64,000 nt of DNA from Phycisphaerales bacterium (GTDB lineage Bacteria > Planctomycetota > Phycisphaerae > Phycisphaerales > UBA1924): assembly GCA_036751825.1 (NCBI GenBank), contig DAIOTV010000002.1:966-64965 (forward strand). Reading direction: 5' to 3'. The notes under the pieces are model-generated. The model was not told the DNA's origin and ran no database searches. It saw only the letters and a list, made by a program, of their open reading frames with translations. This document shows, piece after piece, positions 16,209 to 36,235 of this stretch. The translations under genes and the position numbers were made by a program. The stretch's first letter is position 1, and every line of letters starts with the position of its first letter.

Positions 16209-16340
16209 AAGCGGGGATTCTCAGAGACAGAAACTCGAGGAATAATAATAGCGTATCAGTCTCGCATCGTGTACGGGTGTACTCCGATTGCGGTGCGGAT
16301 CGTTCGTGCGCGCCGGATCGAATTCAGGAGCTTGAAAGAC

Positions 16341-21818: not shown

Positions 21819-21893
21819 CGGGGCGTGGCGCAGTTTGGTTAGCGCGTTTGACTGGGGGTCAAAAGGTCGCTGGTTCGAATCCAGTCGCCCCGA
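21819..21893 (+). tRNA. tRNA-Pro (anticodon GGG), CCA not encoded
   Basis: Hand-folded cloverleaf. Acceptor CGGGGCG/CGCCCCG. D arm GCGC-AGTTTGGTTA-GCGC. Anticodon arm TTTGA-CTGGGGG-TCAAA (anticodon GGG). T arm GCTGG-TTCGAAT-CCAGT. Discriminator A. Confidence 0.9.
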
Positions 21894-21910: not shown

Positions 21911-23401
21911 TCAGATGGGTTCGGCGGCATGCTTCACCGCGGGGGGCGTTGAAGCACCGCGGAACCCGCAATCCGGCCGGGCCTTCTCGAGCAGAATGAA
22001 CAGCGCGTTGTTGACGAACGTCGGATGACGGGTCAGCAGCATGTGGTCCGTGGGGACGAAGGTCACCGCGTCCCACCGGATCGGCGTGACGACGCGGGGA
22101 ACACCCTTCATGCCCCGGCGCTCGTCCATGAGGGCACTCGACCGCAGCACCGTGCCGTCGCCGTAGTCCCGCTCGAGCACCCGGTAGCCGGTCTTGCCCG
22201 CGCCGACCTCGGCCCGGCTCGGGGTCAGCACGCCGTCGCCCGCGAACAGATGCATCGCCACATCGCTGGGCGCGTTCGCGGGCCGATCGAGTGCGTCGTG
22301 AAACTGCCTGGTTTCCTGCAGGCATCTGGCCAGATGGTCGAGCGCGATCCGCCGGCGATCCTTGGAGTCGGCAAGGTGGGGCAGCAGCACCTTCAAGATT
22401 TCGTCCGCTTCGGGGTCGGCCAGACCCCAGCGGTTCCGCTCCCAGCATTCCACCGAGAGCAGGTCGTCGATCGGCTTGCCGGTCCCGGGCTCGACGAAGG
22501 GATGGTGCCGCGTCCGCGGCATGAGCTGGTAGATCGACGGGTAGGTGCAGAGGGTCACCGGGTGATAGCCCGGCGTGGCCGGTGACTCGGGAAGCCCCGT
22601 GATCAGCCGCTCGAGCCCGCCCAACGAACCCGCGTTGGGTGTGCCGACGATGATCGCGTGCTCGATTTTCTTTGCGCCCTCCCAGGTGAGTTCGGGCAGC
22701 GACCCGTCATCGGGCAGGCACTGGGTGCCGTAGCGCAGGTAGTATCGCAGGAGCAGCCCGGCCATCGAGTGGGCGACGATGTCGACCCGCAGGTTGTCCC
22801 TCGCCTTGCCGCCCGCGTCGTAGGTGGCGAACTCCAGGACGCCGTCGATGAACGCGTCGAATCGCTTCATGTTGTCGACGACGGATCGCCGCCAGTCGTA
22901 TGAGAACTCGAAGCAGTTGGCGATGGCACGGTGGTTGTAGTTGAGCGCGAGCTTCCTGCCGGATCTCTTGGAGTCGTCGAGCGTGAAGCCGCCGACGCCG
23001 AGCATCTGGAGGATGGGCCCGTACGCCTGGACGTTCAGCGGGAAGCCGAGCACCCTTGCGCGGAGCTGGTTGATGCTCCCGTCTGAGCTTGTCTCGTCGA
23101 GTCGTTCGCGGAGGGGGGACTCGAACGGCTCCATGGGCAGGGTGATCGCCCTGAGCTGATCGGGATCGTTGGGGTCCGCGAACTCGCGTTTGGTCGAGCC
23201 GCCCCAGAGCACGCGTCCGGAAGGCCTGTCGCGCAGCCGCGAGCCCATGATGCCTGGGATGACGACCACCGGGTTCCGGGTGGAGGCGTCCTGGTGCGTG
23301 GCGTGGCCGTACAGATCGTGAGCGCGCGGGAACGCCGCGCGCGAGACGGTGCCCGCGAGCCAGACCTTCAGGTTGTGCGCTTTGGCTTTGAAGTCGTCCA
23401 T
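21911..23401 (-). CDS. Alpha/beta-hydrolase, LCAT/PGAP1-like lipase or acyltransferase family
   Basis: PVVVIPGIMGSRL oxyanion-region motif and nucleophile elbow AHSMAG. No obvious signal peptide. Confidence 0.65.
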   Translation of the reverse strand: MDDFKAKAHNLKVWLAGTVSRAAFPRAHDLYGHATHQDASTRNPVVVIPGIMGSRLRDRPSGRVLWGGSTKREFADPNDPDQLRAITLPMEPFESPLRERLDETSSDGSINQLRARVLGFPLNVQAYGPILQMLGVGGFTLDDSKRSGRKLALNYNHRAIANCFEFSYDWRRSVVDNMKRFDAFIDGVLEFATYDAGGKARDNLRVDIVAHSMAGLLLRYYLRYGTQCLPDDGSLPELTWEGAKKIEHAIIVGTPNAGSLGGLERLITGLPESPATPGYHPVTLCTYPSIYQLMPRTRHHPFVEPGTGKPIDDLLSVECWERNRWGLADPEADEILKVLLPHLADSKDRRRIALDHLARCLQETRQFHDALDRPANAPSDVAMHLFAGDGVLTPSRAEVGAGKTGYRVLERDYGDGTVLRSSALMDERRGMKGVPRVVTPIRWDAVTFVPTDHMLLTRHPTFVNNALFILLEKARPDCGFRGASTPPAVKHAAEPI

Positions 23402-23423
23402 GGTGGTTCAGCGAAGCGAGGCT

Positions 23424-23443
23424 GTACGGTCCGAGAACCGTAC
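23424..23443. promoter_or_regulatory. Inverted repeat GTACGGT-N6-ACCGTAC in the divergent lipase/kinase intergenic region
   Basis: Read directly. 7-bp perfect arms. Confidence 0.25.
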
Positions 23444-23528
23444 GCCCTCGAGATGCGGGCGGTCGGGGCTGAAGTCATCTTCTCAGCGGCCGATATCTCG
23501 GGTGACCGCAAGCGGAGGGCGGGCACCG

Positions 23529-24992
23529 ATGGGCAACGGAGCATCCGGAGAAACGCGTCAGGCGGGCAATCTGTTCGCGCGCACCGTTCCGGGGGGCCGC
23601 GTCCTGATCGCGGGTCTCGCCGGCCTTGTCCCCCTGTCGGGGGCCGCGCTGGTGGCCATCGACGCCCGAGCGGCGGGATCGATTGACTGGATCCTGCTCG
23701 GCTCGGCGGGCGCGTTCGCCGGGCTCTCGGCGTTTGTGCTTATGCGGGCGTTGAAGCGGCTGCGATGCCTTGCCGCCGTGGCCGACGCCGTGCGCACCGC
23801 CACGCTGCCTCACGCGACGGTGGGAGAGCTCCGGGTCGACTCGACGCTCGGCAGAACCGCGGACGCGTGGAACGAACTGATCGAGCGGCTGCTGAGCGGC
23901 AGCGTGTCTCAGGGGATCGAGCCATCGCGAGACCAGTCGGGCGATCCGGTCATCGACGCCCTCGCCGAGGGCGTCCTGGTCGTCGACGGCGACCTGCGGA
24001 TCCTCGCGTCAAATCCCGCGGCCGCCGCGTTGCTGACCGGCGAATCCGACCCGGCGACGGGCTGTTCCCTCACCGATCTCGAGCCGGCGGACCTGGCAGC
24101 GATTGCCCGAACCGTTCTCGCCGGCGGCCCGGTTCGGCGTGAAACCATCGAGTGCGGCACCGAAGCCTCGCCGCAGGTCCTCCGTGTGCGCGTCGCACGC
24201 GCCGCCGGCCTGGCCGATCGAGCCGTCATGACGCTCACCGACATCACCCGGCAGTCCGTCGCCGAGGCGTCGCGCGGCGGATTCCTCGCCCGTGCCACCC
24301 ACGAACTGCGGGCACCGCTTACAAACATCAAGCTCTACGCCGAGCAGGCGATCGAAGAGGGCGACGAGGATCCGCAGCTTCGGCAGGAAGCCCTGAACGT
24401 GATCGGGCGGGAGGTCCTGCGCCTGGAGCGCACCGTGGGCGATCTGCTCCGCGTGTCCGAGCTCGAAAGCGGCGCCCTCCGCGGCTCACGCACGGAAGTG
24501 CAGGTGGCGGACATGCTCTCCGAGATCCGGAGCGCATTCACGGCCGCCGCGGACGCGAAGTCCATCGGGCTGACTCTCGACGCGCCTCCGAAGCTGCCTC
24601 TGCTGTACGGCGACCGGGATCACATCGAGCTGGTCATCCAGAACCTCGTCGGCAACGCCATCAAGTACACCCCGGAAGGCGGCACCGTGCTCATCCGCGC
24701 CGATGCGGACGAGTTCGAGTTCACGCTCGAGGTGATCGATGACGGCATCGGCATCGCGCCGCAGGAGATCCCGCTCGTCTTCGAGACCTTCTTCCGCTCG
24801 GACGACGCCCGCGTCACCGAGACCCAAGGGTCAGGCCTGGGGCTCTCGCTCGCCCGCCAGCTCGCCCGGCAGCACGGCGGGGACGTCACGCTCGAATCGG
24901 AGCTGAACCGCGGCAGCACGTTCACGCTGCGCCTCCCGGTGGGCAACCGTGAATCGCAGCCCTCGATGCCGTCCGACAGGCAGGCGGCCTAA
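23529..24992 (+). CDS. Membrane sensor histidine kinase (2 TM, PAS, HisKA, HATPase_c)
   Basis: H-box ATHELRAPLT, N-box LVGNAIKYTP, G1 DDGIGI and G2 GSGLGLSL. PAS-like IDALAEGVLVVDGDLRILASNPAAAALL. Start trimmed to MGNGASGE (GGAGGG upstream). Confidence 0.85.
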   Translation: MGNGASGETRQAGNLFARTVPGGRVLIAGLAGLVPLSGAALVAIDARAAGSIDWILLGSAGAFAGLSAFVLMRALKRLRCLAAVADAVRTATLPHATVGELRVDSTLGRTADAWNELIERLLSGSVSQGIEPSRDQSGDPVIDALAEGVLVVDGDLRILASNPAAAALLTGESDPATGCSLTDLEPADLAAIARTVLAGGPVRRETIECGTEASPQVLRVRVARAAGLADRAVMTLTDITRQSVAEASRGGFLARATHELRAPLTNIKLYAEQAIEEGDEDPQLRQEALNVIGREVLRLERTVGDLLRVSELESGALRGSRTEVQVADMLSEIRSAFTAAADAKSIGLTLDAPPKLPLLYGDRDHIELVIQNLVGNAIKYTPEGGTVLIRADADEFEFTLEVIDDGIGIAPQEIPLVFETFFRSDDARVTETQGSGLGLSLARQLARQHGGDVTLESELNRGSTFTLRLPVGNRESQPSMPSDRQAA

Positions 24993-25004
24993 GGGGGAGC
25001 AAGC

Positions 25005-25340
25005 GTGCAGATTGACGAGCACAGCCAGGCCGCCGTCACGGTGCTCACGCCGCGCGGCCCTCTGACCGGAGACGACGCCGCGTTGCTCGCCGTGCGCGTC
25101 GACGCGGCTGCGGCGCAGCAGCGGGGGCGCGTCGTCGTGGATCTGTCGCACGTGTCGTTCGTCGACAGCGCCGGGCTTGAAGCGATCGTGACCCTCGGCG
25201 AGCGGTTCGAGAGGATCGCACGCAGCCTCAAGCTGTGCTGTGTCAACGAGACACTCCGCGAAGTGCTGGACCTCACGGAGGTTGACTCGTACTGCGAACT
25301 CTTCGAGGACACCTCCGCGGCCGTGAGGAGCTTCGAATGA
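25005..25340 (+). CDS. STAS-domain protein (anti-sigma-factor-antagonist family)
   Basis: VVVDLSHVSFVDSAGLEAIV, with the conserved phosphorylatable Ser in DSAGL. GTG start preceded by AAGGGGGA. Its stop overlaps the ATG of the secretion ATPase (ATGA). Confidence 0.85.
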   Translation: MQIDEHSQAAVTVLTPRGPLTGDDAALLAVRVDAAAAQQRGRVVVDLSHVSFVDSAGLEAIVTLGERFERIARSLKLCCVNETLREVLDLTEVDSYCELFEDTSAAVRSFE

Positions 25341-27103
25341 GCCTGCGGCGGCGCGGCATCCGGGTCGGCGAAGCGCTCATCGCGGCCGGAGCCATCAGCG
25401 AGCGCGATCTCGAGCGGGCGCTCACCGAGCAGGCCCGCACCGGCGCCCGGCTGGGCGAGGTGCTCGTCGACGAGGGCTACGTGTCGCAGCTGACCATGGT
25501 GCGAACGCTCGCGCAGAGCATGAACGTGCGCGGGTGCCAGCTCCGGCACGGCCTGATCGACCCAGGGCTGCTGTCGATGGTCGGCGAAGAAGAGTGCGAG
25601 CGACTGCGTGTCATCCCGATGTTCCGCGTCCGCGGCGTGATGACGGTCGCCATGTCCGAGCCGCAGAACCTGTCGAAGGTCGACCAGCTGCGCCGCCTGT
25701 CCGGATGCGAGATCCGGCCGGTGCTCGCTCTTGAGAGCAACGTGCTCGAGTTCGTCCGCAAGTATCGAGGCGGCAACGTCAGCGTCGACGAGTTCCTCAC
25801 ATCTCTCAACGAGCAGGATCTGGAGGTCGTCGAGCGCGAGAACGTCGACGAGGGCGCCGAGACCGATCTCGACCAGATGGTCGAGGGAAGCCCGATCATC
25901 AATCTCGTGAACATCGCGCTGCTCACCGCTGTCCGCGACGGCGCCAGCGATGTCCACATCGAGCCGGACAAACGCGGCACCCGGATCCGCTACCGCGTCG
26001 ACGGGGTGCTGCGCGAGCTCATGAACCCCCCGCCGGGCGTGCACGCGGCGATCGTCAGCCGGATCAAGGTCATCGGGAAGATGGACATCGCCATCAAGCG
26101 CATGCCGCAGGAGGGGCGCGTCCGCATCATCGCCGAGGGGCGCGAGATCGACCTCCGCGTGTCGAGCATGCCCACGCTGCTCGGCGAGAAAATGGTGATC
26201 CGCGTCCTCGACAAGTCGAACCTCCGCATCAGGCTCGACGAGCTCGGCTTCAAGGGCCCGGCGCTCGAGACCTTTCAGCGGATGCTGCGGAAGCCTCACG
26301 GGCTTGTGCTGGTCACCGGGCCCACCGGGTCCGGCAAGACCACGACGCTGTATTCCGCGCTTGACCAGCTGCGCACCCCGGAGCGGAACATCGTCACCGT
26401 CGAGGATCCCGTCGAGTACCAGCTCGACATGGTCAATCAGATTCAGGTGCACGAGCAGGTGGGACTCAGCTTCTCGCACTCGCTGCGGAGCATCCTCCGG
26501 CAGGACCCGGACATCATCATGATCGGTGAGATCCGGGACGAACAGACCGCGCGGGTCGCCGTTCAGGCCGCGCTGACCGGACACCTCGTGCTCGCCACGC
26601 TTCACACCAACGACGCCACGGGCGCCGTCGCGCGGCTCGGCGACATGGGCATCGAGCCCTACCTGCTCTCCGGCTCGCTCAACGGCGCCGTGGCGCAGCG
26701 GCTTGCCCGCACGCTCTGCCCGCATTGCACCGTCAAGTACTACCCGGGCGAAGCCGTGCTGATCGACGCCGGCATCCCCGAGGACGCAGGAAGACCCTTC
26801 CGACGCGGGGCCGGGTGCCAGCAGTGCCACGATTCCGGCTTCCAGGGCCGCATGGGCGTGTACGAGGTCATGGAGGTGACGCCGGAGCTGCGGCGGATGA
26901 TCCACCTCGGCGAGCCCTCGCACGAACTTCGCGCCGAGATCAGGCGGAACGGTGTGGCGACCCTGCGTGACGAAGGGGTCGATCTCGCTCGCGCGGGGCG
27001 GACAAGCCTCGAAGAAGCCCTGCGCGTCACCCACAGCGATGACGCGGCCGCTCCGGCACCGAATAGCGTATCCCAACGCAGCACGGTGGAGCGAGCGGCA
27101 TGA
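25337..27103 (+). CDS. GspE/PilB/MshE-family secretion ATPase with an N-terminal MshEN-type domain
   Basis: Walker A GPTGSGKTTT, Asp box, Walker B and His box are present, and the tetracysteine reads CPHC...CQQC. The N-terminus carries two RxGxxLIxxGxIxxxxLxxxLxxQ-type motifs. Confidence 0.95.
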   Translation: MSLRRRGIRVGEALIAAGAISERDLERALTEQARTGARLGEVLVDEGYVSQLTMVRTLAQSMNVRGCQLRHGLIDPGLLSMVGEEECERLRVIPMFRVRGVMTVAMSEPQNLSKVDQLRRLSGCEIRPVLALESNVLEFVRKYRGGNVSVDEFLTSLNEQDLEVVERENVDEGAETDLDQMVEGSPIINLVNIALLTAVRDGASDVHIEPDKRGTRIRYRVDGVLRELMNPPPGVHAAIVSRIKVIGKMDIAIKRMPQEGRVRIIAEGREIDLRVSSMPTLLGEKMVIRVLDKSNLRIRLDELGFKGPALETFQRMLRKPHGLVLVTGPTGSGKTTTLYSALDQLRTPERNIVTVEDPVEYQLDMVNQIQVHEQVGLSFSHSLRSILRQDPDIIMIGEIRDEQTARVAVQAALTGHLVLATLHTNDATGAVARLGDMGIEPYLLSGSLNGAVAQRLARTLCPHCTVKYYPGEAVLIDAGIPEDAGRPFRRGAGCQQCHDSGFQGRMGVYEVMEVTPELRRMIHLGEPSHELRAEIRRNGVATLRDEGVDLARAGRTSLEEALRVTHSDDAAAPAPNSVSQRSTVERAA

Positions 27104-28320
27104 AGTTCCGGTACGAAGCATTTAATCCGGACGGGTCGCTTGCCGCCGGTGAGATCGACGCCGACTCGCGGGCGGAAGCCGAGCAGGCGATCCGAGCGCA
27201 GGGCAGATTCCCCTCCGTCGTCTCCGCGGCGGCGACCGGCAGGCAGAAGCCCCGGCGAACCGGTCTTCAGCTCGGGCAGAACCGCCTCCGCCAGCTGACG
27301 GCGTTCACCCGCCAGCTGACTGTGCTGATCTCTAGCGGGACGCCCCTCGTGGACGCGATCGAGGCCGCGGAACGCCAGACGCCGCCGGGTCCTTGGCGAG
27401 ACATCATCGAGGATGTGCGGTCCCATGTCGAGCGGGGCGAGTCCCTCTCGGCCGCCATGGCGCGGCATCCGGGCCACTTCGACAGCGTCTACCGCAGTCT
27501 CATCCAGGCGGGCGAGTCGGGCGGCGACATGCACCGCATTCTCGAACGCCTCGCGATGATGTCGCGCCAGCGTCAGGTCGTGCAGAACACCGTCATGGGG
27601 GCGATGCTGTATCCGTCGCTGCTCCTGTTCGTATCGGGAGGCGTGCTCGTCGGGCTGTTCCTCGCCGTGCTGCCGCGGTTCGAGCAGTTGTTCGAAACAC
27701 TTGATGCGCCGCTGCCGCCGACCACGGCGGTTCTCATCGAGAGCTCGGCGTTCGTCCGGTCCAATGCGATCTGGATCGTCCTGGGAATCGCGGCGGCCGT
27801 CTCCGGTGTGATCGCCTACGCCCGGTCCGCGGACGGGCGGGCGGCGGTGCAGCGGCTCGTGGTGCGCCTGCCGCTGATCGGCGCGGCGGTGCGATCGTTC
27901 GTGGTGGCCCGCCTCGCACGGGTGCTGGGCGTGATGCTCGAAGCTCGGGTCCCGCTGCTCGAGAGTCTTCGGGTCGCGCAGGCGAGTGCCAGGCATATCG
28001 AGTACGAGGCCATCATCGGCAACGCAACGGATCGGGTCGAGCGTGGCGAGGCGCTGAGCGACTCGATCGAGGACGGGTTCCTGATCCCCTCCTCGCTCGC
28101 CGAGGCCATCCGCAACGGCGAGCAGAACGGTCGCGTCGGTGAGGTGCTCGTTGTGCTGGCCGACATGCTCGACGAGGACAACGCGATCTTTGCTCGCTCG
28201 ATCACGAGCATCCTCGAGCCGGCGATCCTGTCCCTGCTCGGCGTGGTCGTCGGAGGCGTTGCGATGAGTCTCTTCCTGCCGCTCTTTGATCTCACGGCCT
28301 CGACCGGAGGGGCACCCTGA
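27100..28320 (+). CDS. GspF/PilC-family platform protein
   Basis: Two T2SSF-type repeats, 3 TM segments, and ATGA overlap with the ATPase gene. Confidence 0.9.
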   Translation: MKFRYEAFNPDGSLAAGEIDADSRAEAEQAIRAQGRFPSVVSAAATGRQKPRRTGLQLGQNRLRQLTAFTRQLTVLISSGTPLVDAIEAAERQTPPGPWRDIIEDVRSHVERGESLSAAMARHPGHFDSVYRSLIQAGESGGDMHRILERLAMMSRQRQVVQNTVMGAMLYPSLLLFVSGGVLVGLFLAVLPRFEQLFETLDAPLPPTTAVLIESSAFVRSNAIWIVLGIAAAVSGVIAYARSADGRAAVQRLVVRLPLIGAAVRSFVVARLARVLGVMLEARVPLLESLRVAQASARHIEYEAIIGNATDRVERGEALSDSIEDGFLIPSSLAEAIRNGEQNGRVGEVLVVLADMLDEDNAIFARSITSILEPAILSLLGVVVGGVAMSLFLPLFDLTASTGGAP

Positions 28321-29189
28321 TGCTGCCGGTCTCGCATCAGACCCAGATCGGGATCGATCCCGCCGAAGACGCCGTCCGCGTCGTGGCCGCCCGCGGCAAC
28401 GTGGTGCTCGCCGCTGTGGAGGTGCCGATTGTCAAGGGTGTTGTCCCCCGTGCGGAGGCGCTGCGGCGTGCCCTGGCGGCGGTCGAGCGTCGCGGCGTTC
28501 AGGATCTCGGGCGCTGCGTCGCGATCGCACCGATGTCAATCATGACCAACGCGGTGCTGGAACTGCCTCCGCTGTCCTCGGGGGCGCCGATCGACGACCT
28601 CGCGGCGGCGGAAATGACGCGGGGCACGGACGGTGGCGGCGTCGAGGTGGCCGTCTTTCCCGTGCGAAACCGAGAGAACGGCCCCTCGGAGTACTTCGTC
28701 GCTTCCGCCCGCCGCGATGGTGTGCTGGCCCTGGTCGACGACTTTGCGGCGATCGGGGTCGAGGTGCGTGCCGTGGATGCGCCGGTGACCGCGCTGAGCC
28801 GGGCGTGCGGCACGGTGAACTGCCTCATCGCTTCCATCGTGAGGGGCGGGGCTGCTCTGCACGCCGTGCAGGGCGGAACGCCGATTCTGTCGCGGACCGT
28901 TCCCCTCACCGCCTCGCGGCTGTCGAGTGCGTTGCTTATCTCCGAGATCGACCGGTGCGCCGGATACCTCGCGACCTACCGCGCCGACGCCGCGATCGAG
29001 GAGATCGTGCTCGTCGGTTCCGCGGACACGCTGCCCGGCGCGGCGCGTGACATCGCGTGCGAGTTTGATGTCGGCGTGCGGGTGTGGGGGCGGCCAGCCG
29101 AGGGCGGCTCGGTCGACGGGCTCGGCCCGGCGTTTGCCGGCGCCTACGGCGCTGCGCGATGGGGACACACGGGGAGGGCAGCGGCATGA
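28320..29189 (+). CDS. PilM/MshI-like actin-fold assembly protein (short form)
   Basis: N-terminal QIGIDPAEDAVRVVAAR resembles the PilM GxDIGxxxxK phosphate-1 strand. Position between the platform protein and the PilN-like gene. 1-nt overlap (TGATG). Confidence 0.55.
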   Translation: MLPVSHQTQIGIDPAEDAVRVVAARGNVVLAAVEVPIVKGVVPRAEALRRALAAVERRGVQDLGRCVAIAPMSIMTNAVLELPPLSSGAPIDDLAAAEMTRGTDGGGVEVAVFPVRNRENGPSEYFVASARRDGVLALVDDFAAIGVEVRAVDAPVTALSRACGTVNCLIASIVRGGAALHAVQGGTPILSRTVPLTASRLSSALLISEIDRCAGYLATYRADAAIEEIVLVGSADTLPGAARDIACEFDVGVRVWGRPAEGGSVDGLGPAFAGAYGAARWGHTGRAAA

Positions 29190-29785
29190 AGTCCGTCAAC
29201 CTGCTGCCCAAGCCGATCCTGGCCCAGCGGACGCGACGCATCCGCCGCACGATCTGGACCCGTTCGCTGCTGGCGTACTGCATCGTTCTTCTGGCCGCCG
29301 TTCTCGCCGTCGAGGGCGTGCTGATCGAACCGACGGAGGCCCTTGAGGCTCAGTCGCTCGCCGTGGCGTCAGACATCGCGGCCAACGAGGCCCGGCTGGC
29401 GCTCCAGCAAGAACTCAAAGAGTCGCTGGTCGCCGAGCTCGCGGTCTTGACCGAGATCCACGGCCAGCCCGATTGGAGCGTGCTGATCCGGCACATCAGC
29501 GAGCACCGAGGCGAGGGTGTTGCGATTCGCTCGGTACGCGTTGCGCTCGCAGCGCAGTCCGCCTCGCAGATCACGCCGAGCCAGCTCGCGCGCGGGCCCT
29601 ACCGCGTCGAGATGAGCGGCCTCGCGCGCACGCAGTCGGACGTGACCGAGTACATGGTCCGCCTCGAACGGGCCGGGCTGCTCGGAGAGATCAGGCTGCA
29701 GGGGACCTCCCCGACACGCGTGGGCGATGAGACCGCGTTCGTTTTCTCGCTTCAGGCTCGCCTGGGAGCGGAGGGCCAAAGCTGA
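29186..29785 (+). CDS. PilN/GspL(C-terminal)-like bitopic assembly protein
   Basis: MKSVNLLPKPILAQRTRRIRR followed by one TM, the canonical PilN N-terminus (INLLP motif). ATGA overlap. Confidence 0.65.
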   Translation: MKSVNLLPKPILAQRTRRIRRTIWTRSLLAYCIVLLAAVLAVEGVLIEPTEALEAQSLAVASDIAANEARLALQQELKESLVAELAVLTEIHGQPDWSVLIRHISEHRGEGVAIRSVRVALAAQSASQITPSQLARGPYRVEMSGLARTQSDVTEYMVRLERAGLLGEIRLQGTSPTRVGDETAFVFSLQARLGAEGQS

Positions 29786-30342
29786 TGCTCAGAAACCCCA
29801 TCGATCGCGCCGGGTGTGCCATCGCCGTTGCCATCACGGCGATCGGATACGCGGGCGGAATCCGACCCGTCGTCGCTCATCAGACGCAACGCATCATGAT
29901 GGAACGCGACATCGCGAGCAAGCAGGGCGATCTCGAGCAGCTCCGCGGCGATGTGGTCGAGAAGGAAGCGGTTGTGCAGACGCTGCAGAGACGGGTGGGC
30001 GACTTTCGCACGAGCTTTGAGGCCTCGCCGCGGCTGAACGAACGGATCGGTGAGCTCGCGGCGCTGGCGGAGGTCACCGGAGTTGCCGTCGGGTCGATCC
30101 GGCCCGGGGAGCCAACCGCAGGCGACGGAGTCCGGCAGCAGCCGGTATCGATCTCGGGCCAGGGAGCGCCCGGAGACATCGCCAGGTTCCTGTCGCAGCT
30201 GCGGGTCGTGTTCCCGGACATGGGCGTGCGCAGCTTCACCGTCAGCGGTCAGTCCGCCGAGACGTCGTTGATCGCCGCCGAGCTGGTGTGGTTTACCGGT
30301 TCCAACGATCAGTCCGATTCGGAGGCCGCCCCGTCGCGGTAG
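29785..30342 (+). CDS. PilO/GspM-like bitopic assembly protein
   Basis: One N-terminal TM (CAIAVAITAIGYAG), a coiled-coil segment and a C-terminal alpha/beta region. Called by position and topology only. Confidence 0.45.
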   Translation: MLRNPIDRAGCAIAVAITAIGYAGGIRPVVAHQTQRIMMERDIASKQGDLEQLRGDVVEKEAVVQTLQRRVGDFRTSFEASPRLNERIGELAALAEVTGVAVGSIRPGEPTAGDGVRQQPVSISGQGAPGDIARFLSQLRVVFPDMGVRSFTVSGQSAETSLIAAELVWFTGSNDQSDSEAAPSR

Positions 30343-30391
30343 CGCACGCGGATTGCTTGCCGCCGCGTCGATGCGATTGCATGCTTGGGCC

Positions 30392-30901
30392 ATGGCCAGG
30401 GGGAAGCCGAACCGGATCATGCTGGGGTTGCTGGGCGTCGCGGTGCTTGCGCTGCTGACCGACCAGCTGCTTCCGGCCTCAAGCCACGCCGACGAGGCGT
30501 TCGTGCCCACGGGCACCGAGGCGCAGGCGATCGAGGCGGCTCCGTCTCCCGACGCGCTGAGGAACGGGCCAACACTCTCGGACCGCTTCGCCGGTTTCGA
30601 GCAGCCCGGCGAGCCCGACCGCGATGCCATCGGGGCCGCCTTCGCCCCCCTCGCCACAAAGGACGAGTCGACCGGGCCGGCCGCGGCCGAGCCGGAATCG
30701 AACGAGGTCGGTCTCAAGCTCTCCGCGATTCTTCGTCGGGAAGACGGGAACATCGCCGTGATCAACGGCCGCCCGCTCCGAGTGGGCGACTCGATCGATG
30801 GAGCGCGGATTCTCTCGATCGAGGGGCAGCGGGTCCGGGTCGAGACCGCCGTGGGTGCGATAACGCTCGAGCTGCAGCGTCCGAAGCTGCAAGCCGACTA
30901 G
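30392..30901 (+). CDS. GspB/MshK/PilP-like protein
   Basis: N-terminal TM, then the C-terminal LSAILRREDGNIAVINGRPLRVGDSIDGARILSIEGQRVRV typical of the T2SSB/MshK family. Alternative starts at 30353 or 30371. Confidence 0.55.
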   Translation: MARGKPNRIMLGLLGVAVLALLTDQLLPASSHADEAFVPTGTEAQAIEAAPSPDALRNGPTLSDRFAGFEQPGEPDRDAIGAAFAPLATKDESTGPAAAEPESNEVGLKLSAILRREDGNIAVINGRPLRVGDSIDGARILSIEGQRVRVETAVGAITLELQRPKLQAD

Positions 30902-30993
30902 CGCTGCCGCGTGCGCGCCCTGTTGGGCGATTTCTCCTTGCAACAGGCGTCAAGTCCGCCGGCGATCGGGACGATCTCCTCGGGGAGGTCCAC

Positions 30994-31473
30994 ATGGGGG
31001 AATTGCAAATGATGTCAAGAGCGCGCCGGCGAGGGTTCAGCCTGATCGAACTGGTGATTGTGGTGGTGATCCTCGGGATCATCGGAGCGATCGCCATCCC
31101 GCGGATGAGCCGCGGCTCCGAGGGCGCGGCCGAATCGGCCCTCAAGGCCAACCTGCAGGCCCTGCGAGGGGCGATCGATCTGTACGCCGCCGAGCATCAG
31201 GGCGCGTACCCGTCGGTCGGCGATTTCGTCGACCAGCTCACGCTCTACAGCGATGCCAGCGGAGCCACCAGTGCGACCAAAACCGGCGACTTCATCTACG
31301 GCCCGTACCTGCGATCGATCCCGCCGCTGCCCGTTGGAACGAACCAGGGCAATTCCGGTGTCGCCGCGGCAGACGGCGCGGGCGTCGGCTGGCTGTACAA
31401 CGAAACCGCGGGCACCATCGTCTCGAACACCGGCACCGAAGGCAATGGCACAACGCAGTGGAACGCGTTCTAG
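30994..31473 (+). CDS. Major pseudopilin (GspG-like; prepilin-type N-terminal methylation domain)
   Basis: RRRG/FSLIELVIVVVILGIIGAIAIPR with Glu+5. No C-terminal Cys pair. GGGGAGG upstream. Confidence 0.85.
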   Translation: MGELQMMSRARRRGFSLIELVIVVVILGIIGAIAIPRMSRGSEGAAESALKANLQALRGAIDLYAAEHQGAYPSVGDFVDQLTLYSDASGATSATKTGDFIYGPYLRSIPPLPVGTNQGNSGVAAADGAGVGWLYNETAGTIVSNTGTEGNGTTQWNAF

Positions 31474-32026
31474 TCTGAGCCGGCGTGGTTTCACGCTGGT
31501 CGAGCTCGCGGTGGTCATCGCGGTTCTCGCGGTGATCTCCGCGGTGGCGATCCCTCGGTTCGCATCCGCCTCGGCCCGTTCGAGGCTGGACGCCGCCGCG
31601 GCCAGGGTCGTGCAGGACATCGCCGTCTCCGCCGCGAGCGCGCAGGCGATGGGATCCGATCGCCAGATGGTCTTCGACGCTCCCACCGATCAGTACCTGC
31701 TCGTCGGCGTGCGGACACGCGGCGGCGGGACCTTCCGGTCGGTCCGGCTCGGCGATCCGCCCTACGAGACCAACATCGTCTCGGCGACATTCGAGGGCTC
31801 GCCGCTGCTGCGCCTCAGCGGCTACGGCGTGCCGGAGACGACCGGCACGATCAACCTCGCGGTGGGCCGCCAGGGCAAGCGCATCGTGTTGAACGCCGGA
31901 ACCGCCGCCGTGCAGGTCCGTTCGCTCGACCTTTCCGACGACGCAACCGGTGACGTGCTGCCGAGCGTCACGCGCGACGTTGACGCCGGCACGATTGACA
32001 TCGGCGCTTCGGTGAGCTTCCGGTGA
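31445..32026 (+). CDS. Minor pseudopilin (GspH-like)
   Basis: SRRG/FTLVELAVVIAVLAVISAVAIPRF. Overlaps the preceding gene by 29 nt. Confidence 0.7.
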   Translation: MAQRSGTRSSLSRRGFTLVELAVVIAVLAVISAVAIPRFASASARSRLDAAAARVVQDIAVSAASAQAMGSDRQMVFDAPTDQYLLVGVRTRGGGTFRSVRLGDPPYETNIVSATFEGSPLLRLSGYGVPETTGTINLAVGRQGKRIVLNAGTAAVQVRSLDLSDDATGDVLPSVTRDVDAGTIDIGASVSFR

Positions 32027-32526
32027 GGCGCGCGCCGCGACCACGCCGGGCGTTCACACTCGTCGAACTCGTGTCGAGCCTCTTCGTGTCGTCCGTCGTT
32101 GTCGTTGCCATGGCGTCCACTATCGGGCTGATGACGAGGGCGCTGCCGGACGCCTCGCTGCCGACGCAGACCGGCATCGTTGTGCAGCGGACACTCGACA
32201 TGATCGCGAACGACGCCCGCTTCGCCGCCGATGTCACGATCGTCGATGACGGCGAGGTCAGCATGCTCCTCCCTGATCGCGACGGCGACGGCTCGCCCGA
32301 CGTCGTCACCTATCGCTGGGCCGGTTCCGACGGCGACCCGCTCACCCGCGAGCACAAGTCGCTCGGCGAGGCTCCCCTGCTCACCGCCGTTGACGAGGTC
32401 AGCTTCGCGTGGGCCAGCTTCTCCGAGCCGGCCGGGCCCTTGCACAAGTGTCTCATGATCTCCATCCGCGTCGGCGCGACCGAGATGTCGATCGGCCCGC
32501 GCTGCCTGAATCTGGAGGCCGAATGA
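32023..32526 (+). CDS. Minor pseudopilin (GspJ/PilW-like)
   Basis: PRRA/FTLVELVSSLFVSSVVVVAMA. GTGA overlap. Confidence 0.6.
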   Translation: MRRAPRPRRAFTLVELVSSLFVSSVVVVAMASTIGLMTRALPDASLPTQTGIVVQRTLDMIANDARFAADVTIVDDGEVSMLLPDRDGDGSPDVVTYRWAGSDGDPLTREHKSLGEAPLLTAVDEVSFAWASFSEPAGPLHKCLMISIRVGATEMSIGPRCLNLEAE

Positions 32527-33131
32527 GGCTCGCCCGAGGAATCGCGATGGTCGAGGCCGTGCTCGCGACGGTGATCGTCGGCGGGCTCGCGGTCGCCGCC
32601 ATGTCGCTCGTCGGCACCATCGCGACCGAGCGGCGGGTGGCGGCGGACCGCAGTGTCGGGCACCTGCTTGCCAGGCAGCTCGCCGAGGAGATCGCGGCCC
32701 TGCCACTCGACCACACAACAAGAAGCGGGGCCGAGGGCGGCGAGGATAGCGAGGACGGAAACGACAACGGGGGCCGAAGCGGTGGACTTGTCGGCGGCAT
32801 CCTCGGTGGAGTGGCCGACGCGGTGGCTGGTCTTGCGGGCGAGGAACCAGACGAGCCGGACTCTGCCGACCGAAGCCTGCTGCTCGATGTGCTCGACTAC
32901 GACGGGTACACCAAGTCGCCCCCGGTCGACCGGGAAGGCACCGCCCTTCCGGGCGTCGAAGCCTGGATGCGGTCGGTCGAGGTCACCGAGGTGCTGCCCG
33001 GGGACCCCGATGGACCCGAGGTCGGCGGCACCGGCGTGTACCGCGTCCGCGTCACCGCCACCTTGAACGGCCGCCTCGCGGGCGAGATGGTCTTCTACCG
33101 ATCCCTCGCAGGCGACGAGGCGGTGCGATGA
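32523..33131 (+). CDS. Minor pseudopilin (GspI-like) with a Gly/Asp/Glu-rich insertion
   Basis: LARG/IAMVEAVLATVIVGGLAVAAM with Glu+5. ATGA overlap. Low-complexity insertion at 32715..32876. Confidence 0.6.
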   Translation: MRLARGIAMVEAVLATVIVGGLAVAAMSLVGTIATERRVAADRSVGHLLARQLAEEIAALPLDHTTRSGAEGGEDSEDGNDNGGRSGGLVGGILGGVADAVAGLAGEEPDEPDSADRSLLLDVLDYDGYTKSPPVDREGTALPGVEAWMRSVEVTEVLPGDPDGPEVGGTGVYRVRVTATLNGRLAGEMVFYRSLAGDEAVR

Positions 33132-34312
33132 GCCCGCGCCGTCAGGAACGCGGCGGCGTGTACCTGCTCGTGCTCGTCACGGCGGGTGTCGCGATGTCGA
33201 TGGGCGTGCTCGCGGTCGCCGCGGCCGCCTCCCAGCGGGAGATCCAGGAGATCGCCATCGACCGCGAACGCGCCGGCGCGATCGCCGAGTCGGGCATCCA
33301 CCTGGCCCTCGACGCCATCGAAGGCAACAGCACCTGGCGTCTGACCCCCGCAGGCCGCGTGCTCGGCCCGCTCACGCTCGACCGAGGACAGCTCTGGGTG
33401 GACGCCACCGATGCCGACGGCAGCCTGACCGACGATGACAGCGACCCGTTCACGCTCACCGCGACGGCGACCTTCGGCCAGGCGAGGCAACGCGTCGCGG
33501 TCGACATCGAGTCCGCGTTCGAGCCGATCGAAGCTCTGGAGCATGCGCTGGTCGCCCACGGCGGCGTGACCAATACGGGAGACATCACCCTGAGCGTGGA
33601 CACAGCCACGCTTGACATCTCGATCCCGCTTATCGCCGAGCTCGACCCGTGGAATCGCATGCGCGAGATGGGAGACATCGCCCTGCCCGATCCTGGGGTC
33701 ATCGCCCAGTATCAGGCGATGGGCACCGTGCTGCCTCAATCCATGAGCAACGGCGGTGAGGGCATGCTCTACGAGAAACTGCTGCTGACCATCGACGCTG
33801 CGGAGTCGAAGGCTGACCGAACAGCTCCGAACGCCGACCGCGTGTATGTGATCAACGGTCGCGGCGGACCGGTACTTCTTACGGACCTAAGGCTCGTCGG
33901 CACGCTCGTTGTCGTCAACGCCACCTCGCTCGAGATTTCGAGCCCGAAGACGATGCGCCCCTCGGCCGAGGGACACCCGCTGCTGCTCACCGCGGCGCCG
34001 CTCACGCTCGATGGCGTCAGCAAGAGGAGCACCAACAACGCGCTCAAAGGAGAGGACGCCAGACCGACCGGGCCCGACTTCGACCGAAAGGGCAACCAGG
34101 GTGCGCAAGGCCTGATCTACGTCAACAACAACGTGGCGATCGTGAACGAGCTTGACCTGATCGGCACGCTGATGTCGACCGGCCAGGTGTTCGTATCTGG
34201 AGAAGCGAACATCGAGCGGAACGACGCCTATCTCGAAGCTCCGCCGCCGGGCTTCCGCGGAGGCACGGTGCCCAGGATCGTGGCGGGCAGCTGGCGAGCG
34301 GTGGTCGACTAG
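33128..34312 (+). CDS. Large minor pseudopilin-like protein without Glu+5 (GspK/PilX-like by position)
   Basis: The N-terminal hydrophobic helix GGVYLLVLVTAGVAMSMGVLAVAAA lacks Glu+5, as in GspK. Last gene of the operon. ATGA overlap. Confidence 0.5.
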   Translation: MSPRRQERGGVYLLVLVTAGVAMSMGVLAVAAAASQREIQEIAIDRERAGAIAESGIHLALDAIEGNSTWRLTPAGRVLGPLTLDRGQLWVDATDADGSLTDDDSDPFTLTATATFGQARQRVAVDIESAFEPIEALEHALVAHGGVTNTGDITLSVDTATLDISIPLIAELDPWNRMREMGDIALPDPGVIAQYQAMGTVLPQSMSNGGEGMLYEKLLLTIDAAESKADRTAPNADRVYVINGRGGPVLLTDLRLVGTLVVVNATSLEISSPKTMRPSAEGHPLLLTAAPLTLDGVSKRSTNNALKGEDARPTGPDFDRKGNQGAQGLIYVNNNVAIVNELDLIGTLMSTGQVFVSGEANIERNDAYLEAPPPGFRGGTVPRIVAGSWRAVVD

Positions 34313-34337: not shown

Positions 34338-35825
34338 CTACGCCGCTCTGACGCCGATGCCCGACTGGGTCGCGTGCTCGGCGATCATCCGGTCGAACTC
34401 GGACAGGTCGAGCGACAGCAGCGCGTCGACCACGCCCGGGTCGAGCTGCGAACCGGCGGACCGGCGGAGCTCGGCGATGACCTCCTCGCGCGGCATCTTC
34501 GACCGGTACGAGCGGGTTGAACTCATCGCATCGAAGGTGTCCGCGGCGGCGACGATCCTCGCGCTCAGCGGGATGCTGTCGCCCGTCAGCCCCGCCGGGT
34601 AGCCCCGTCCGTCCAGCCGCTCGTGGTGGTGGAGCACGGCTGGCAGGATGTCCTCGAGTCCCTTGAGGTCCTTCAGAATGCGGTGCCCGATCTCCGGATG
34701 CCGCTTGATCTGGTCGTACTCGTCGTCGGTAAGGCGGCCGCTCTTCTGGAGCACCGCCTCGGCGACACCGATCTTGCCGACATCGTGCAGCAGCCCGGCG
34801 ACCCGAAGCCGTTCCGCGTGCGCGGCGTCGAGCCCGAGCCCGATCGCGATCTGCTGGCTGAGATACGCCACCCGCTGCGCGTGGCCCCGCGTGTAGCGGT
34901 CCTTGGCGTCGATCGCCGCCGACAGCGACTCGAGCACGCCCATCGCCATTTCGCGCTGCTCGTTGAACAGCCGGCAGTTGGTCAGGAAGGCCGACAGCAG
35001 CCCGACGACGGCGTCGATCAGCTTGGTGTCGTACGAGCTGACGTTGCCCGCCTCGCGATGCTTGTCGCCGGCGATGATCATGCCCACGATCCCGCGGTCG
35101 TTCCGCAGCGGCCGAACGATCGCCTGCGGCCCGTTGAACGCGTCCAGCGACATGCCGTCCAGCGCCATCACGCCCAGCAGCCGGTCGAGGTGTTTCAGCT
35201 CCGTCCCGTGCTTGGCTTCGCCGTCCCAGTGCGTCTTTCCCGCGAGCATGGGTCCGACGTCCGCCGCGTCCGACAGGTGCACCGCGACATACCCGAACGC
35301 GAGCGTCTGCCGGACGCGTTTGCAGGTGACCGACAGGAACCGCTGCGGCTCGTCGAGGCTGGCCATCGAGTTGCCCAGCGCGTACATGAGCTCCAGCATC
35401 TCGAACGCGTCGGTGATCTGATCGGCGAGATCCGTGACTTCGTCCTCGAGCTCGTTGATCGCGAGCCCGTCGCGGATTATCTGCTCGAGCGACGGGATGC
35501 AGCGAAGCAGCTCCGCATCGGGCGCGATCGCCCCGCCCGACCCGGGCCTGCAGGTGACCAGCAGCGAGCCGAGGTCGTCGTCGCGATGCTGTAGCGGCAG
35601 CCTGACCCGCGCCGCGTGAGGTCCTTCGGTGACCACGGCGCCGACGGGGTGGTCCGCAAGCCGACGGAGATCGCCGTCGGCGGCGCCCAACCCGTCGGGC
35701 CTCGAGCCGTCCGGCGCGAGGTAGACGCACTCGAGGCCGAGCTCGGAGGAGCGAGCCTGCACGATTTTCAGCAGAGGCGCGATCCGGCGATCGATCCGGT
35801 GTGGCTCGCACGCATGGTCGGTCAC
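34338..35825 (-). CDS. GAF-domain HD-GYP c-di-GMP phosphodiesterase
   Basis: HD-GYP motifs HAQRVA, LLHDVGKIGV and HHERLDGRGYPAGL. GTG start at 35825 overlaps the receiver gene stop (GTGA). The rest of ORF 34338..36095 upstream is read-through of the neighbouring gene in another frame. Confidence 0.85.
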   Translation of the reverse strand: MTDHACEPHRIDRRIAPLLKIVQARSSELGLECVYLAPDGSRPDGLGAADGDLRRLADHPVGAVVTEGPHAARVRLPLQHRDDDLGSLLVTCRPGSGGAIAPDAELLRCIPSLEQIIRDGLAINELEDEVTDLADQITDAFEMLELMYALGNSMASLDEPQRFLSVTCKRVRQTLAFGYVAVHLSDAADVGPMLAGKTHWDGEAKHGTELKHLDRLLGVMALDGMSLDAFNGPQAIVRPLRNDRGIVGMIIAGDKHREAGNVSSYDTKLIDAVVGLLSAFLTNCRLFNEQREMAMGVLESLSAAIDAKDRYTRGHAQRVAYLSQQIAIGLGLDAAHAERLRVAGLLHDVGKIGVAEAVLQKSGRLTDDEYDQIKRHPEIGHRILKDLKGLEDILPAVLHHHERLDGRGYPAGLTGDSIPLSARIVAAADTFDAMSSTRSYRSKMPREEVIAELRRSAGSQLDPGVVDALLSLDLSEFDRMIAEHATQSGIGVRAA

Positions 35826-36235
35826 GCCGCCGCCTTCCTGTCCGGAGCCCACGACAGGATCCGGCACACCAGGTCGGCGACTGCGGTCGCGCTGAACGGC
35901 TTCTCGAGCACCTCGACGATGCGGGTCTGCCGCAACCGGGTGTCGTCCAGCAGAAAGCCCCGCCCGCTGATCATCACGATCGGGACCTGAGAGGTGACCG
36001 GGTGCCCCGCGAGGGCGAGTGCCATCTCGAGCCCGTCCATTTTGGGCATCTGAAGATCGCTCAGGATCAGCGACGGCGGCCGCTCGACCGCGCACGCGAA
36101 CCCCTCGGCGCCGTTCCGGGCCACCTTCACATCCGCGCCGAGCTTTGCGAGCTTACGTCCGAGAATGTGGGTGATGTGCGGCTCGTCATCGACGAGGAGA
36201 ATCACGGGCCACGCTGTCCGTTCGGCGTCGGGCAT
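35822..36235 (-). CDS. Stand-alone response-regulator receiver (CheY-like)
   Basis: ILLVDDEP, phospho-acceptor context LILSDLQMPKMDG, and a conserved EKP (Lys) near the C-terminus. Confidence 0.9.
   Translation of the reverse strand: MPDAERTAWPVILLVDDEPHITHILGRKLAKLGADVKVARNGAEGFACAVERPPSLILSDLQMPKMDGLEMALALAGHPVTSQVPIVMISGRGFLLDDTRLRQTRIVEVLEKPFSATAVADLVCRILSWAPDRKAAA

Follow-up and report, generated by a model that had tools for sequence, protein, structure and literature searches.

A tandem MshEN motif at the N-terminus of a type IV filament-type assembly ATPase from a Phycisphaerales bacterium, with predicted binding of c-di-GMP

A GspE/PilB-type assembly ATPase encoded in the stretch of 64 kb analysed here (referred to as the window) carries at its N-terminus a genuine MshEN motif pair in the register of Vibrio cholerae MshE, as judged from a curated hidden Markov model, a gapless alignment, the predicted fold and conservation among orthologues. 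Sequence and structural model together indicate that residues 1–62 make up the N-subdomain, a four-helix bundle, of an MshEN (GSPII) domain, which most likely binds one c-di-GMP in the fashion of MshE. Direct control of the motor by this messenger is a reasonable reading by analogy with characterized relatives. Binding, its affinity and the direction of any effect on the motor are points on which we infer from what can be seen directly: the sequence, the register, membership of the curated model, the fold as predicted, the conservation across the clade and the neighbouring genes. The gene and its relevant parts are as follows.

25337..27103, forward strand: GspE/PilB/MshE-family assembly ATPase, 588 aa; Pfam T2SSE, 1.9e-134
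25361..25432, forward strand: MshEN motif I, residues 9–32, RVGEALIAAGAISERDLERALTEQ
25433..25447, forward strand: five-residue spacer ARTGA (KNTGR in MshE), residues 33–37
25448..25519, forward strand: MshEN motif II, residues 38–61, RLGEVLVDEGYVSQLTMVRTLAQS; terminal Gln replaced by Ser
25541..25564, forward strand: clade-specific, almost invariant LRHGLIDP following the four-helix bundle, residues 69–76
25550..25771, forward strand: MshEN C-terminal alpha/beta subdomain, residues 72–145 (Pfam PF05157, 6.4e-12; AlphaFold2 secondary structure)

Translation of 25337..27103 on the forward strand reads M1...R9-VGEALIAAGAISERDLERALTE-Q32, then ARTGA, then R38-LGEVLVDEGYVSQLTMVRTLAQ-S61. This reproduces to the residue the two motifs and the spacer that an earlier note had placed at residues 9–32 and 38–61, along with the deviations it had named: Val for Leu at position 2 and Ala at position 11 of motif I, and Tyr at position 11, Met at 17 and Ser at 24 of motif II. 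The Tyr is barely a deviation, as MshE has Phe48 there; the Results of the MshE paper state G(I/F)(L/V) (PMC5013675). The note had also held that both copies fit the published consensus, which is true of a relaxed form of the motif expression, matched by both, and untrue of the strict form, matched by neither. Across the six frames of the window the relaxed expression occurs at these two sites only, against a mean of 0.0 in 200 residue-shuffled controls. The strict expression has no match in the window, and it was rejected as a criterion because validated binders deviate from it too.

Assignment to the family relies on a curated model, NCBIfam NF053729 (“c-di-GMP_motif”, 53 residues), which reaches 61.9 bits (cut-off 38, E 3.7e-17) and aligns residues 9–60 of the ATPase with model positions 1–52 of 53. 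The earlier note would have given up its reading had the motif register been shifted relative to validated domains. No shift was found: residues 6–64 align with residues 6–64 of MshE (PDB 5HTL) without gaps, 22 of the 53 module residues are identical, and R9, G11, Q32, R38 and G40 carry the same numbers in both proteins. Homology to MshE extends over residues 6–137. Against PDB sequences, the N-domain matches MshE at 2e-14 and the PilF GSPII domains at 2.5e-10 to 1.9e-09. The Pfam match to PF05157 covers the alpha/beta subdomain and not the tandem-motif bundle.

MshE of V. cholerae (Wang et al. 2016, PMC5013675) thus provides the closest comparison, being the best match in both motif and structure and sharing the 24+5+24 layout with identical residue numbers, as well as a four-helix bundle plus alpha/beta subdomain on a GspE/PilB-type ATPase. 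R9, G11, L14, G18, L25, L29, Q32, R38, L39, G40, L43, G47 and L58 are common to the two proteins, which differ by L10V, I19A, F48Y, L54M and Q61S. In terms of motif positions, both copies have Arg at position 1 (R9, R38) and Gly at position 3 (G11, G40), and positions 2, 17 and 21 are hydrophobic in each (V10, L25 and L29; L39, M54 and L58). V10 and M54 are conservative substitutions. The Gln at position 24 is kept in motif I (Q32) but not in motif II (Ser61), which leaves the strict two-Gln consensus unsatisfied. Unlike MshE, the window ATPase comes from a planctomycete and has a gene neighbourhood other than an msh operon, and its binding is a prediction.

The AlphaFold2 model of the N-domain (pLDDT 86) places helices at residues 10–16, 22–35, 39–45 and 51–62, followed by beta/alpha elements, and in this model both the four-helix-bundle N-subdomain and the alpha/beta C-subdomain are present. 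The best Foldseek match is MshE with c-di-GMP (5HTL, E 9e-11, TM 0.67/0.73), and the next best is PilF GSPII-B with c-di-GMP; the PilF structures 8PDK, 8PKZ and 9GLG match at TM 0.62–0.70. Further matches include the Xanthomonas citri PilB N-domain–PilZ complex (7LKM, E 1.6e-07), the XpsE N-domain (2D28) and the non-binding GSPII-A (9G1W).

If the ligand is held as in 5HTL, each protomer would accommodate one extended c-di-GMP monomer. By homology, Arg9 and Arg38 would stack on the two guanines, whose Hoogsteen edges would be read by the main-chain amides of Gly11/Glu12 and Gly40/Glu41, while two hydrophobic triads (Val10, Met54 and Leu58; Leu39, Leu25 and Leu29) would pack on the bases. Gln32 would form hydrogen bonds to the ribose and the phosphate; the matching Gln contact from motif II would be lost with Ser at residue 61. 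Without that contact, affinity is predicted to lie somewhat below the 0.5 µM of MshE, probably in the low micromolar range. Occupancy of the site may then tune the hexameric GspE/PilB-type motor and, through it, how the (pseudo)pilus specified by the downstream genes is assembled.

Published mutants give a measure of the substitutions seen here. Binding by MshE is abolished or strongly cut by G11L and G40I, and Q61A costs 11.8-fold in affinity (PMC5013675). In a domain with MshE-like binding, L54M has been called “interchangeable”; the loss brought by L29V is only 4-fold. Ile for Leu at the two motif-2 Leu positions causes a 2.4-fold loss (PMC12002112), and the extended consensus accepts R, K or L at motif position 1. 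In PilF GSPII-B, Q190E lowers affinity to about the level of MshE, and a double Gln mutant abolishes binding. Counted against binding in the ATPase are the departure of both motifs from the strict consensus, the polar contact removed by Ser61, and Ala19 in place of a bulky core residue.

Conservation was assessed in 178 distinct orthologue N-termini from proteins that are 64–94% identical to the query over their full length. G11, L14, G18, L25, L29, Q32 and G40 are invariant (178/178), L39, L54 and L58 are kept in 92–95% of the orthologues, and the spacer is five residues long in 174 of the 178 strings. Position 38 varies among M, K, R and L, and position 61 among C, T, S, Q and V, with Gln in 17 of 178 strings (absent from ~90%). 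In MshE, G11, G40 and Q32 are ligand contacts that are not listed among the hydrophobic core residues (PMC5013675), and at the level of sequence the invariance of the seven residues argues for retained ligand binding. Within the LRHGLIDP segment, H71, G72, L73, D75 and P76 are invariant in 43 sequences.

Beyond the N-domain, the protein is, by sequence, a GspE/PilB-type assembly motor in a type IV filament cluster. PF00437 (T2SSE) matches with 448 bits in a Pfam profile search, and the catalytic motif set is complete, consisting of a Walker A (GPTGSGKT, 328–335), Asp box, Walker B, His box and tetracysteine (CPHC...CQQC), the motif residues after Walker A being 356–360, 390–401, 414–425, 461–464 and 494–497. 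The best full-length PDB matches are PilB-type, covering residues 7–569 at E 1e-145 to 1e-149 (5ZFR and 5TSG at 1e-149), and over its full length the ATPase is closer to these proteins of Geobacter and Myxococcus than to MshE. The type IVa extension ATPases PilB of Myxococcus xanthus, Geobacter metallireducens and G. sulfurreducens (3JC8, 5TSG, 5ZFR) share its arrangement of MshEN, N2, C-terminal ATPase and tetracysteine. The PilB equivalog TIGR02538, however, scores 580.4 bits, below its cut-off of 675.65. The GspE equivalog TIGR02533 scores almost the same (575.3 bits, cut-off 630.25) with a model that spans residues 90–565 only, and the major subunit encoded downstream is more GspG-like. 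The neighbouring genes are listed below.

23349..24992, forward strand: PAS-HisKA-HATPase sensor histidine kinase, directly upstream; syntenic in 72/72 loci
25005..25340, forward strand: single-domain STAS protein (STAS, 7.2e-17); syntenic in 72/72 loci
27100..28320, forward strand: GspF/PilC platform protein; downstream of the ATPase in 79/80 loci
28320–29189, 29084–29785 and 29785–30342, forward strand: diverged PilM-, PilN- and PilO-like genes (PilN, 5e-05)
31015..32526, forward strand: three prepilin-type genes, encoding a GspG-like major subunit with G|FSLIE, a GspH-like protein and one more
34338..36095, reverse strand: HD-GYP phosphodiesterase-type protein, convergent at the distal end of the cluster (HD_5 PF13487, 8.7e-39)

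The stop codon of the STAS gene overlaps the start of the ATPase gene (ATGA). The PilM_2 and PilO profile matches are faint, but they fall in the expected gene order (28320..30342); the GspG match of the major subunit is sub-threshold, and secretin and PilT genes were not seen in the window. Naming the machine as a type IVa pilus (PilB) or a type II secretion system (GspE) was rejected on the two missed equivalog cut-offs. Given these cut-offs, the faint or sub-threshold accessory matches and the absence of secretin and PilT from the window, the machine is left as type IV filament/T2SS-like.

Of the two c-di-GMP-related neighbours that the earlier note had cited in favour of its prediction, the HD-GYP gene proved real and counts in its favour, and the “PilZ” gene proved to be a sub-threshold match only. 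The former encodes a protein with both signatures intact, namely HDVGK (HD at residue 437) and HHHERLDGRGYP (GYP at residue 498), and 36 of 57 related loci have such a gene at the corresponding place, in 32 of these 36 in convergent orientation. Such an enzyme would be expected to lower the c-di-GMP signal. The latter (ORF 41429–42268) lies 14 kb off and unlinked, behind unrelated genes. It scores 22.8 against 23 bits for PilZNR and 14.6 against 22.5 for PilZ (PF07238), and while PilZ domains have RxxxR plus (D/N)xSxxG, its RRSFYR is accompanied by a second motif, NIGGGG, that has no Ser and sits ~65 residues away. Being below both thresholds, it was not counted as a PilZ c-di-GMP receptor in support of the prediction, and a six-frame scan of the window for PilZ motifs returned nothing credible. 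No diguanylate cyclase (GGDEF) or EAL domain was found in the scanned ORFs of the 64-kb window, and no c-di-GMP riboswitch was found in the window, where the sole Rfam hit is a tRNA. The lack of a cyclase gene and of a riboswitch in the window weighs against the prediction.

An alternative, which we regard as unlikely, is that the domain has the MshEN/GSPII fold without useful affinity for c-di-GMP, lost or never acquired, and serves instead as a docking site for another protein; examples would be the STAS protein translated with it, a partner resembling PilM/GspL or an adaptor of PilZ type. Precedents are XpsE, X. citri PilB–PilZ and PilF GSPII-A, all represented among the Foldseek matches (2D28, 7LKM and 9G1W). 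In every related locus, translation of the STAS gene is coupled to that of the ATPase gene, which favours docking of the STAS protein. The consensus alone is also no guarantee of binding: in Thermus thermophilus PilF, a perfect consensus did not suffice for full-length GSPII-A to bind (PMC12002112). Together with Ser61, at a position where Gln is worth ~12-fold, this tempers the prediction of c-di-GMP control.

The comparison with each precedent nonetheless favours a binding domain. The N-domains of Xanthomonas XpsE/GspE and of X. citri PilB with PilZ (2D27/2D28, 7LKM), from T2SS and T4P ATPases, respectively, have the same fold but degenerate motifs, and they do not bind c-di-GMP directly, whereas the window ATPase keeps nearly all key residues. 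Loss of binding in XpsE took G11V, I19R, L29R, R38G, G40L, L54H, L58C and Q61V, among which position 61 alone is counted as changed here. PilF contains three GSPII domains of the same family, GSPII-B and -C that bind and GSPII-A that does not (PMC11731258, PMC12002112), as opposed to one in the window ATPase. Residues 6–119 of the latter align with GSPII-B at E about 1e-10. In many orthologues motif-2 position 1 is occupied by Met, Lys or Leu, which compares with the Lys/Leu of GSPII-B, while both position-1 residues are Arg in the window ATPase, as in MshE. Like GSPII-A, the ATPase is without the motif-2 terminal Gln; unlike GSPII-A, its motif 2 keeps Arg38 and Gly40 and it has no Ncap motif. 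The residues before helix 1 are L3-R4-R5-R6-G7-I8, with Arg4 at Ncap and Gly7 at N3, so that neither Ser/Thr/Asp at Ncap nor Glu/Gln/Asp at N3 is found in this N-terminus. On sequence and model, the Ncap-stabilised extension of helix 1 that blocks the site in GSPII-A is absent. The clade-wide invariance of G11, G40 and Q32, and top sequence and structure matches to ligand-bound MshE and GSPII-B and not to degenerate domains, also stand against a purely docking role. Docking and ligand binding can, moreover, coexist.

A second alternative accepts a cyclic dinucleotide but makes it another one, for instance 3'3'-cGAMP, degraded by the neighbouring HD-GYP enzyme. Some HD-GYP enzymes, such as the V-cGAPs of V. 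cholerae, hydrolyse 3'3'-cGAMP. The N-subdomain MshEN_N binds cGAMP measurably though weakly (Kd 3.3e-4 M), and motif 2 is asymmetric to motif 1 in the clade, with its Gln lost and position 38 often Met or Leu. Set against this are the ~660-fold preference of MshE for c-di-GMP over cGAMP, the intact guanine-reading RxG/G-amide elements in both motifs, and the lack of any cGAS/DncV-like synthase in the window ORFs scanned, which together make c-di-GMP the far better candidate and cGAMP a very improbable one. Chance resemblance in a protein rich in Ala, Leu and Arg from a genome of 68% G+C, a composition that enriches Ala, Arg, Gly and Leu, would accord with the strict expression missing both copies, but it is refuted by the curated model, the empty shuffled controls and lack of other sites in six frames, the homology to MshE, the fold match and the conservation among orthologues.

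As a predicted c-di-GMP-binding MshEN domain, the N-terminus of the ATPase belongs, as was to be expected, to a well-known family and extends an established principle without surprise. MshEN on GspE/PilB/MshE ATPases has been described for >10,000 proteins, with Planctomycetes already tabulated (Wang 2016, supplementary tables, PMC5013675). Nothing specific to MshEN in Planctomycetes or to a STAS–GspE link was found in the literature searched beyond these tables, nor did that literature yield a study of c-di-GMP effectors in Phycisphaerae. If confirmed, binding would establish a c-di-GMP receptor in Phycisphaerae and would tie the messenger to a type IV filament/T2SS machine in a phylum whose cell envelopes are unusual. 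The invariant kinase–STAS pair upstream is a small lead on regulation of the motor, and the only mildly new aspect. More speculatively, the PAS kinase, coupled STAS protein, MshEN motor and distal convergent HD-GYP enzyme might constitute a conserved and self-contained regulatory cassette of Phycisphaerae, with the motor at its core, that combines a partner-switch-like input with local turnover of c-di-GMP and uses an MshEN variant in which the motif-2 Gln is systematically lost and an invariant RHGLIDP gained. We doubt that the whole of this picture will hold, but if true it would represent a regulatory architecture and a receptor sequence variant that are both new, not just another MshE. That the second Gln has been lost across the clade offers, in itself, a natural experiment on the importance of that contact.

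The assembly ATPase starts at the ATG at 25337, the first in-frame start codon after the upstream stop. This ATG and the stop codon of the STAS gene in front of it share bases (ATGA), and the translation product of the ATPase gene is 588 aa long. Two MshEN motifs lie at the N-terminus and, with their spacer, span nt 25361-25519. Translation and nucleotide mapping agree with the coordinates claimed for the pair in an earlier note, whose deviations from the consensus were also all correct.

Elements of the motif pair, in residues of the ATPase
9-32, + strand, MshEN motif I, RVGEALIAAGAISERDLERALTEQ
33-37, + strand, spacer ARTGA between the two MshEN motifs
38-61, + strand, MshEN motif II, RLGEVLVDEGYVSQLTMVRTLAQS

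The pair is a genuine MshEN element that passes a curated family model. NF053729, the NCBIfam model of this 53-residue element ("cyclic di-GMP-binding domain, MshE-related"; cut-off 38 bits), aligns to residues 9-60 over model positions 1-52 of 53, with 61.9 bits (E 3.7e-17). The strict published regular expression is satisfied by neither copy; a relaxed version hits exactly these two sites when all six frames of the window are scanned and has no hit in 200 residue-shuffled controls, which, together with the NF053729 score, refutes chance resemblance. The Pfam model named MshEN (PF05157) covers residues 72-145 only; this stretch is the C-subdomain and lies outside the ligand-binding motif pair. 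Of the earlier claim of an MshEN c-di-GMP-binding pair, the assignment and register stand (NF053729; alignment to 5HTL, the Vibrio cholerae MshE N-domain with c-di-GMP), but the strict consensus does not, as one defining feature, Gln24 of motif 2, is Ser. Because NF053729 is passed and this Gln is missing, the protein is an MshEN family member with a clade-typical variant motif 2, predicted to bind c-di-GMP.

The remainder of the protein is an intact motor. The T2SSE ATPase domain occupies residues 183-563 (1.9e-134), with a complete set of Walker A, Asp box, Walker B, His box, and assembly-ATPase tetracysteine motif (CPHC...CQQC). The closest full-length structures are type IVa PilB (E about 1e-149). 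The equivalog cut-offs of both PilB (580 vs 675.65) and GspE (575 vs 630.25) are missed, and the protein is named a GspE/PilB/MshE-family assembly ATPase. Homologues carry the database names "GspE/PulE family protein", "PilB", "ATPase, T2SS/T4P/T4SS family", and "HxcR", and the best related loci come from Planctomycetota/Phycisphaerales MAGs (<=94% identical).

Comparison with validated domains reveals no shift in motif register. In a PDB search, residues 6-64 pair gaplessly with the identically numbered residues of MshE in 5HTL, so that R9, G11, G18, L25, L29, Q32, R38, L39, G40, G47, and L58 bear the same numbers in both proteins. Identity across the 53-residue module is 22/53, and residues 6-137 match MshE with an E of 2e-14. 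The N-domain is also similar to all three GSPII domains of Thermus PilF and to the N-termini of Myxococcus and Geobacter PilB. Residues 1-155 were modelled with AlphaFold2 from 42 orthologues; the model (mean pLDDT 86) places helices at 10-16, 22-35, 39-45, and 51-62 and an alpha/beta subdomain after them. Its top PDB match is 5HTL, "MshE with cdg" (E 9e-11, TM 0.67/0.73), and the next are c-di-GMP-bound structures of PilF GSPII-B.

Conservation was compared across 178 distinct orthologue N-termini, taken from 120 proteins and 80 loci.

Conservation of motif positions among orthologue N-termini
G11, L14, G18, L25, L29, Q32, G40: constant in all aligned strings (L29: 177/178)
L39: kept in 95%
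G47: kept in 97%
L54: kept in 92%, Met in 7%, with the window protein of the Met type
L58: kept in 94%
Position 10: V, I, L, or F
Position 38 (motif 2 position 1): M (79), K (41), R (40), L (13); window protein of the R type
Position 61 (motif 2 position 24): C (79), T (26), S (20), Q (17), V (13)

The invariant columns are reproduced in a 43-sequence alignment. Since G11, G40, and Q32 are ligand contacts in the MshE structure and absent from its list of core residues, their invariance is the strongest sign in this analysis of selection acting on the ligand site. Residues at position 38 are compatible with the extended consensus, which allows R/K/L at position 1 (Neissner et al. 2024); a hydrophobic residue there is predicted to give very high affinity (Neissner 2024). 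The terminal Gln of motif 2 is unconserved in the Phycisphaerae clade. Directly after the four-helix bundle, LRHGLIDP (residues 69-76, nt 25541-25564, + strand) is almost invariant in the clade, with H71, G72, L73, D75, and P76 constant in 43/43 aligned sequences, whereas MshE and PilB are without it. This segment might compensate for the lost Gln61 or act as a docking site.

Published substitutions indicate what the deviations may cost. In MshE, c-di-GMP binding is weakened 36-fold by L10A, 4-fold by L29V, 9-fold by Q32A, 11.8-fold by Q61A, and 72-fold by G40I, and is not detectable with G11L. A natural domain with I19M, L49I, and L54M binds like MshE, and these substitutions were termed "interchangeable". 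In PilF constructs, Leu to Ile at positions 17 and 21 weakens binding 2.4-fold and motif Gly to Ala 10-fold; Q190E in GSPII-B lowers affinity to about the level of MshE, and both Gln to Glu changes together abolish binding. By comparison with these variants, little effect is expected of V10 and M54, and about one order of magnitude in affinity would be lost with S61. Ala19 stands where a bulky core residue is usual. A Kd in the low micromolar range would be expected from these comparisons.

The N-domain probably binds c-di-GMP. By homology to 5HTL, one extended c-di-GMP would be held per protomer, with each motif holding one GMP half through Arg stacking and the backbone amides of Gly and the next residue, and the other motif completing the hydrophobic triad on that half. 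Gln32 would give polar contacts that have no symmetric partner at residue 61. Binding-defective MshE variants do not support pilus production or biofilm formation; by analogy, occupancy would promote motor activity and filament assembly, a direction of effect that is less certain than binding. The protein would thereby work like MshE and PilF GSPII-B, as a putative MshEN receptor.

An unlikely alternative is that the domain is a non-binding docking module, comparable to XpsE, Xanthomonas citri PilB-PilZ, and PilF GSPII-A, whose structures its fold also resembles. The missing Gln61 and the ever-present STAS gene fit such a role, but in those domains many of the key positions are substituted, whereas in the window clade the key residues do not vary. 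Full-length GSPII-A stayed non-binding after a perfect consensus was restored; its helix 1 has one more turn, stabilised by an Ncap, which blocks the site together with inter-subdomain contacts (PMC12002112). No Ncap signature is found in the ATPase, where L3-R4-R5-R6-G7-I8 precedes R9, and helix 1 of the model begins at residue 10. A different dinucleotide ligand, for example cGAMP, is weakly supported and highly improbable.

This MshEN module, in the register of MshE and fused to an intact assembly ATPase, lies within a type IV filament cluster.

Features around the ATPase
23349-25340, + strand, PAS-HisKA-HATPase histidine kinase and single-domain STAS protein, directly upstream
28320-34312, + strand, part of the filament cluster that includes very diverged PilM/N/O-like genes
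32409-33131 and 33128-34312, + strand, two ORFs of the cluster without assignment
34338-36095, - strand, HD-GYP gene

A GspF/PilC platform protein follows the ATPase, then the PilM/N/O-like genes and, further downstream, a GspG-like major prepilin (cleavage site G↓FSLIE), more prepilins, and the two unassigned ORFs. The 64 kb window showed no gene for a secretin, PilT, or a prepilin peptidase. The order and strand of kinase, STAS, and ATPase are kept in 72/72 Phycisphaerae loci with sufficient upstream DNA. The STAS protein retains the Ser of the DSAG motif, presumably the phospho-site of SpoIIAA/RsbV-type proteins. The cluster showed neither a response regulator nor an RsbW-type kinase, and a literature search turned up nothing on the kinase-STAS pair or on a connection between STAS proteins and GspE/PilB.

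Two c-di-GMP-related neighbours had also been proposed. The HD-GYP gene is genuine (HD_5 8.7e-39; HDVGK and HHHERLDGRGYP motifs intact), with an N-terminal region of ~390 residues without a Pfam match. Among the 57 related loci whose downstream DNA is long enough, 36 have an HD-GYP gene at the cluster's distal end (32 of the 36 convergent), including some with an ATPase only about 70% identical, and this synteny strengthens the tie to cyclic-dinucleotide signalling. By analogy with MshE, the enzyme would lower the c-di-GMP signal. The PilZ gene proved weak, with 22.8 bits for PilZNR (cut-off 23) and 14.6 for PilZ (cut-off 22.5). This ORF (about 41429-42268, + strand) has RRSFYR and a degenerate, distant second motif (NIGGGG for (D/N)xSxxG), and is a possible diverged YcgR-like PilZN-PilZ protein. 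It lies 14 kb off, beyond Vut_1, ScpB, DUF58, and transglutaminase genes, and is directly preceded by the DUF58/transglutaminase (TgpA-like) pair. No GGDEF or EAL gene or c-di-GMP riboswitch occurs within the window.

The MshEN domain occurs in >10,000 proteins, from gsp as well as pil operons (Wang et al., PMC5013675), and the supplement of that study lists the planctomycetes Rhodopirellula baltica (RB12774) and Isosphaera pallida. The ATPase is an uncharacterised addition to this known family. What is mildly new concerns clade and context only: Gln61 is systematically lost, RHGLIDP is invariant, and a PAS kinase is paired with a STAS protein directly upstream.

Elsewhere in the window, a carbohydrate-use block upstream of the cluster (9069-19124; alpha-amylase-family genes, a GH31 glycosidase, and an MFS sugar transporter) appears unrelated to the MshEN finding. 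The sole Rfam match at gathering threshold is a tRNA gene at 21819-21893 (+ strand; RF00005, 65.5 bits). An orphan ORF at ~47423-48508 (+ strand) has a prepilin-type N-terminus (GFTLIELLVVISIIALLIGILLP), with a weak N_methyl motif as its sole match, and a large C-terminal part without a Pfam match; we take it to resemble the stand-alone pseudopilin-like proteins that are numerous in planctomycetes.
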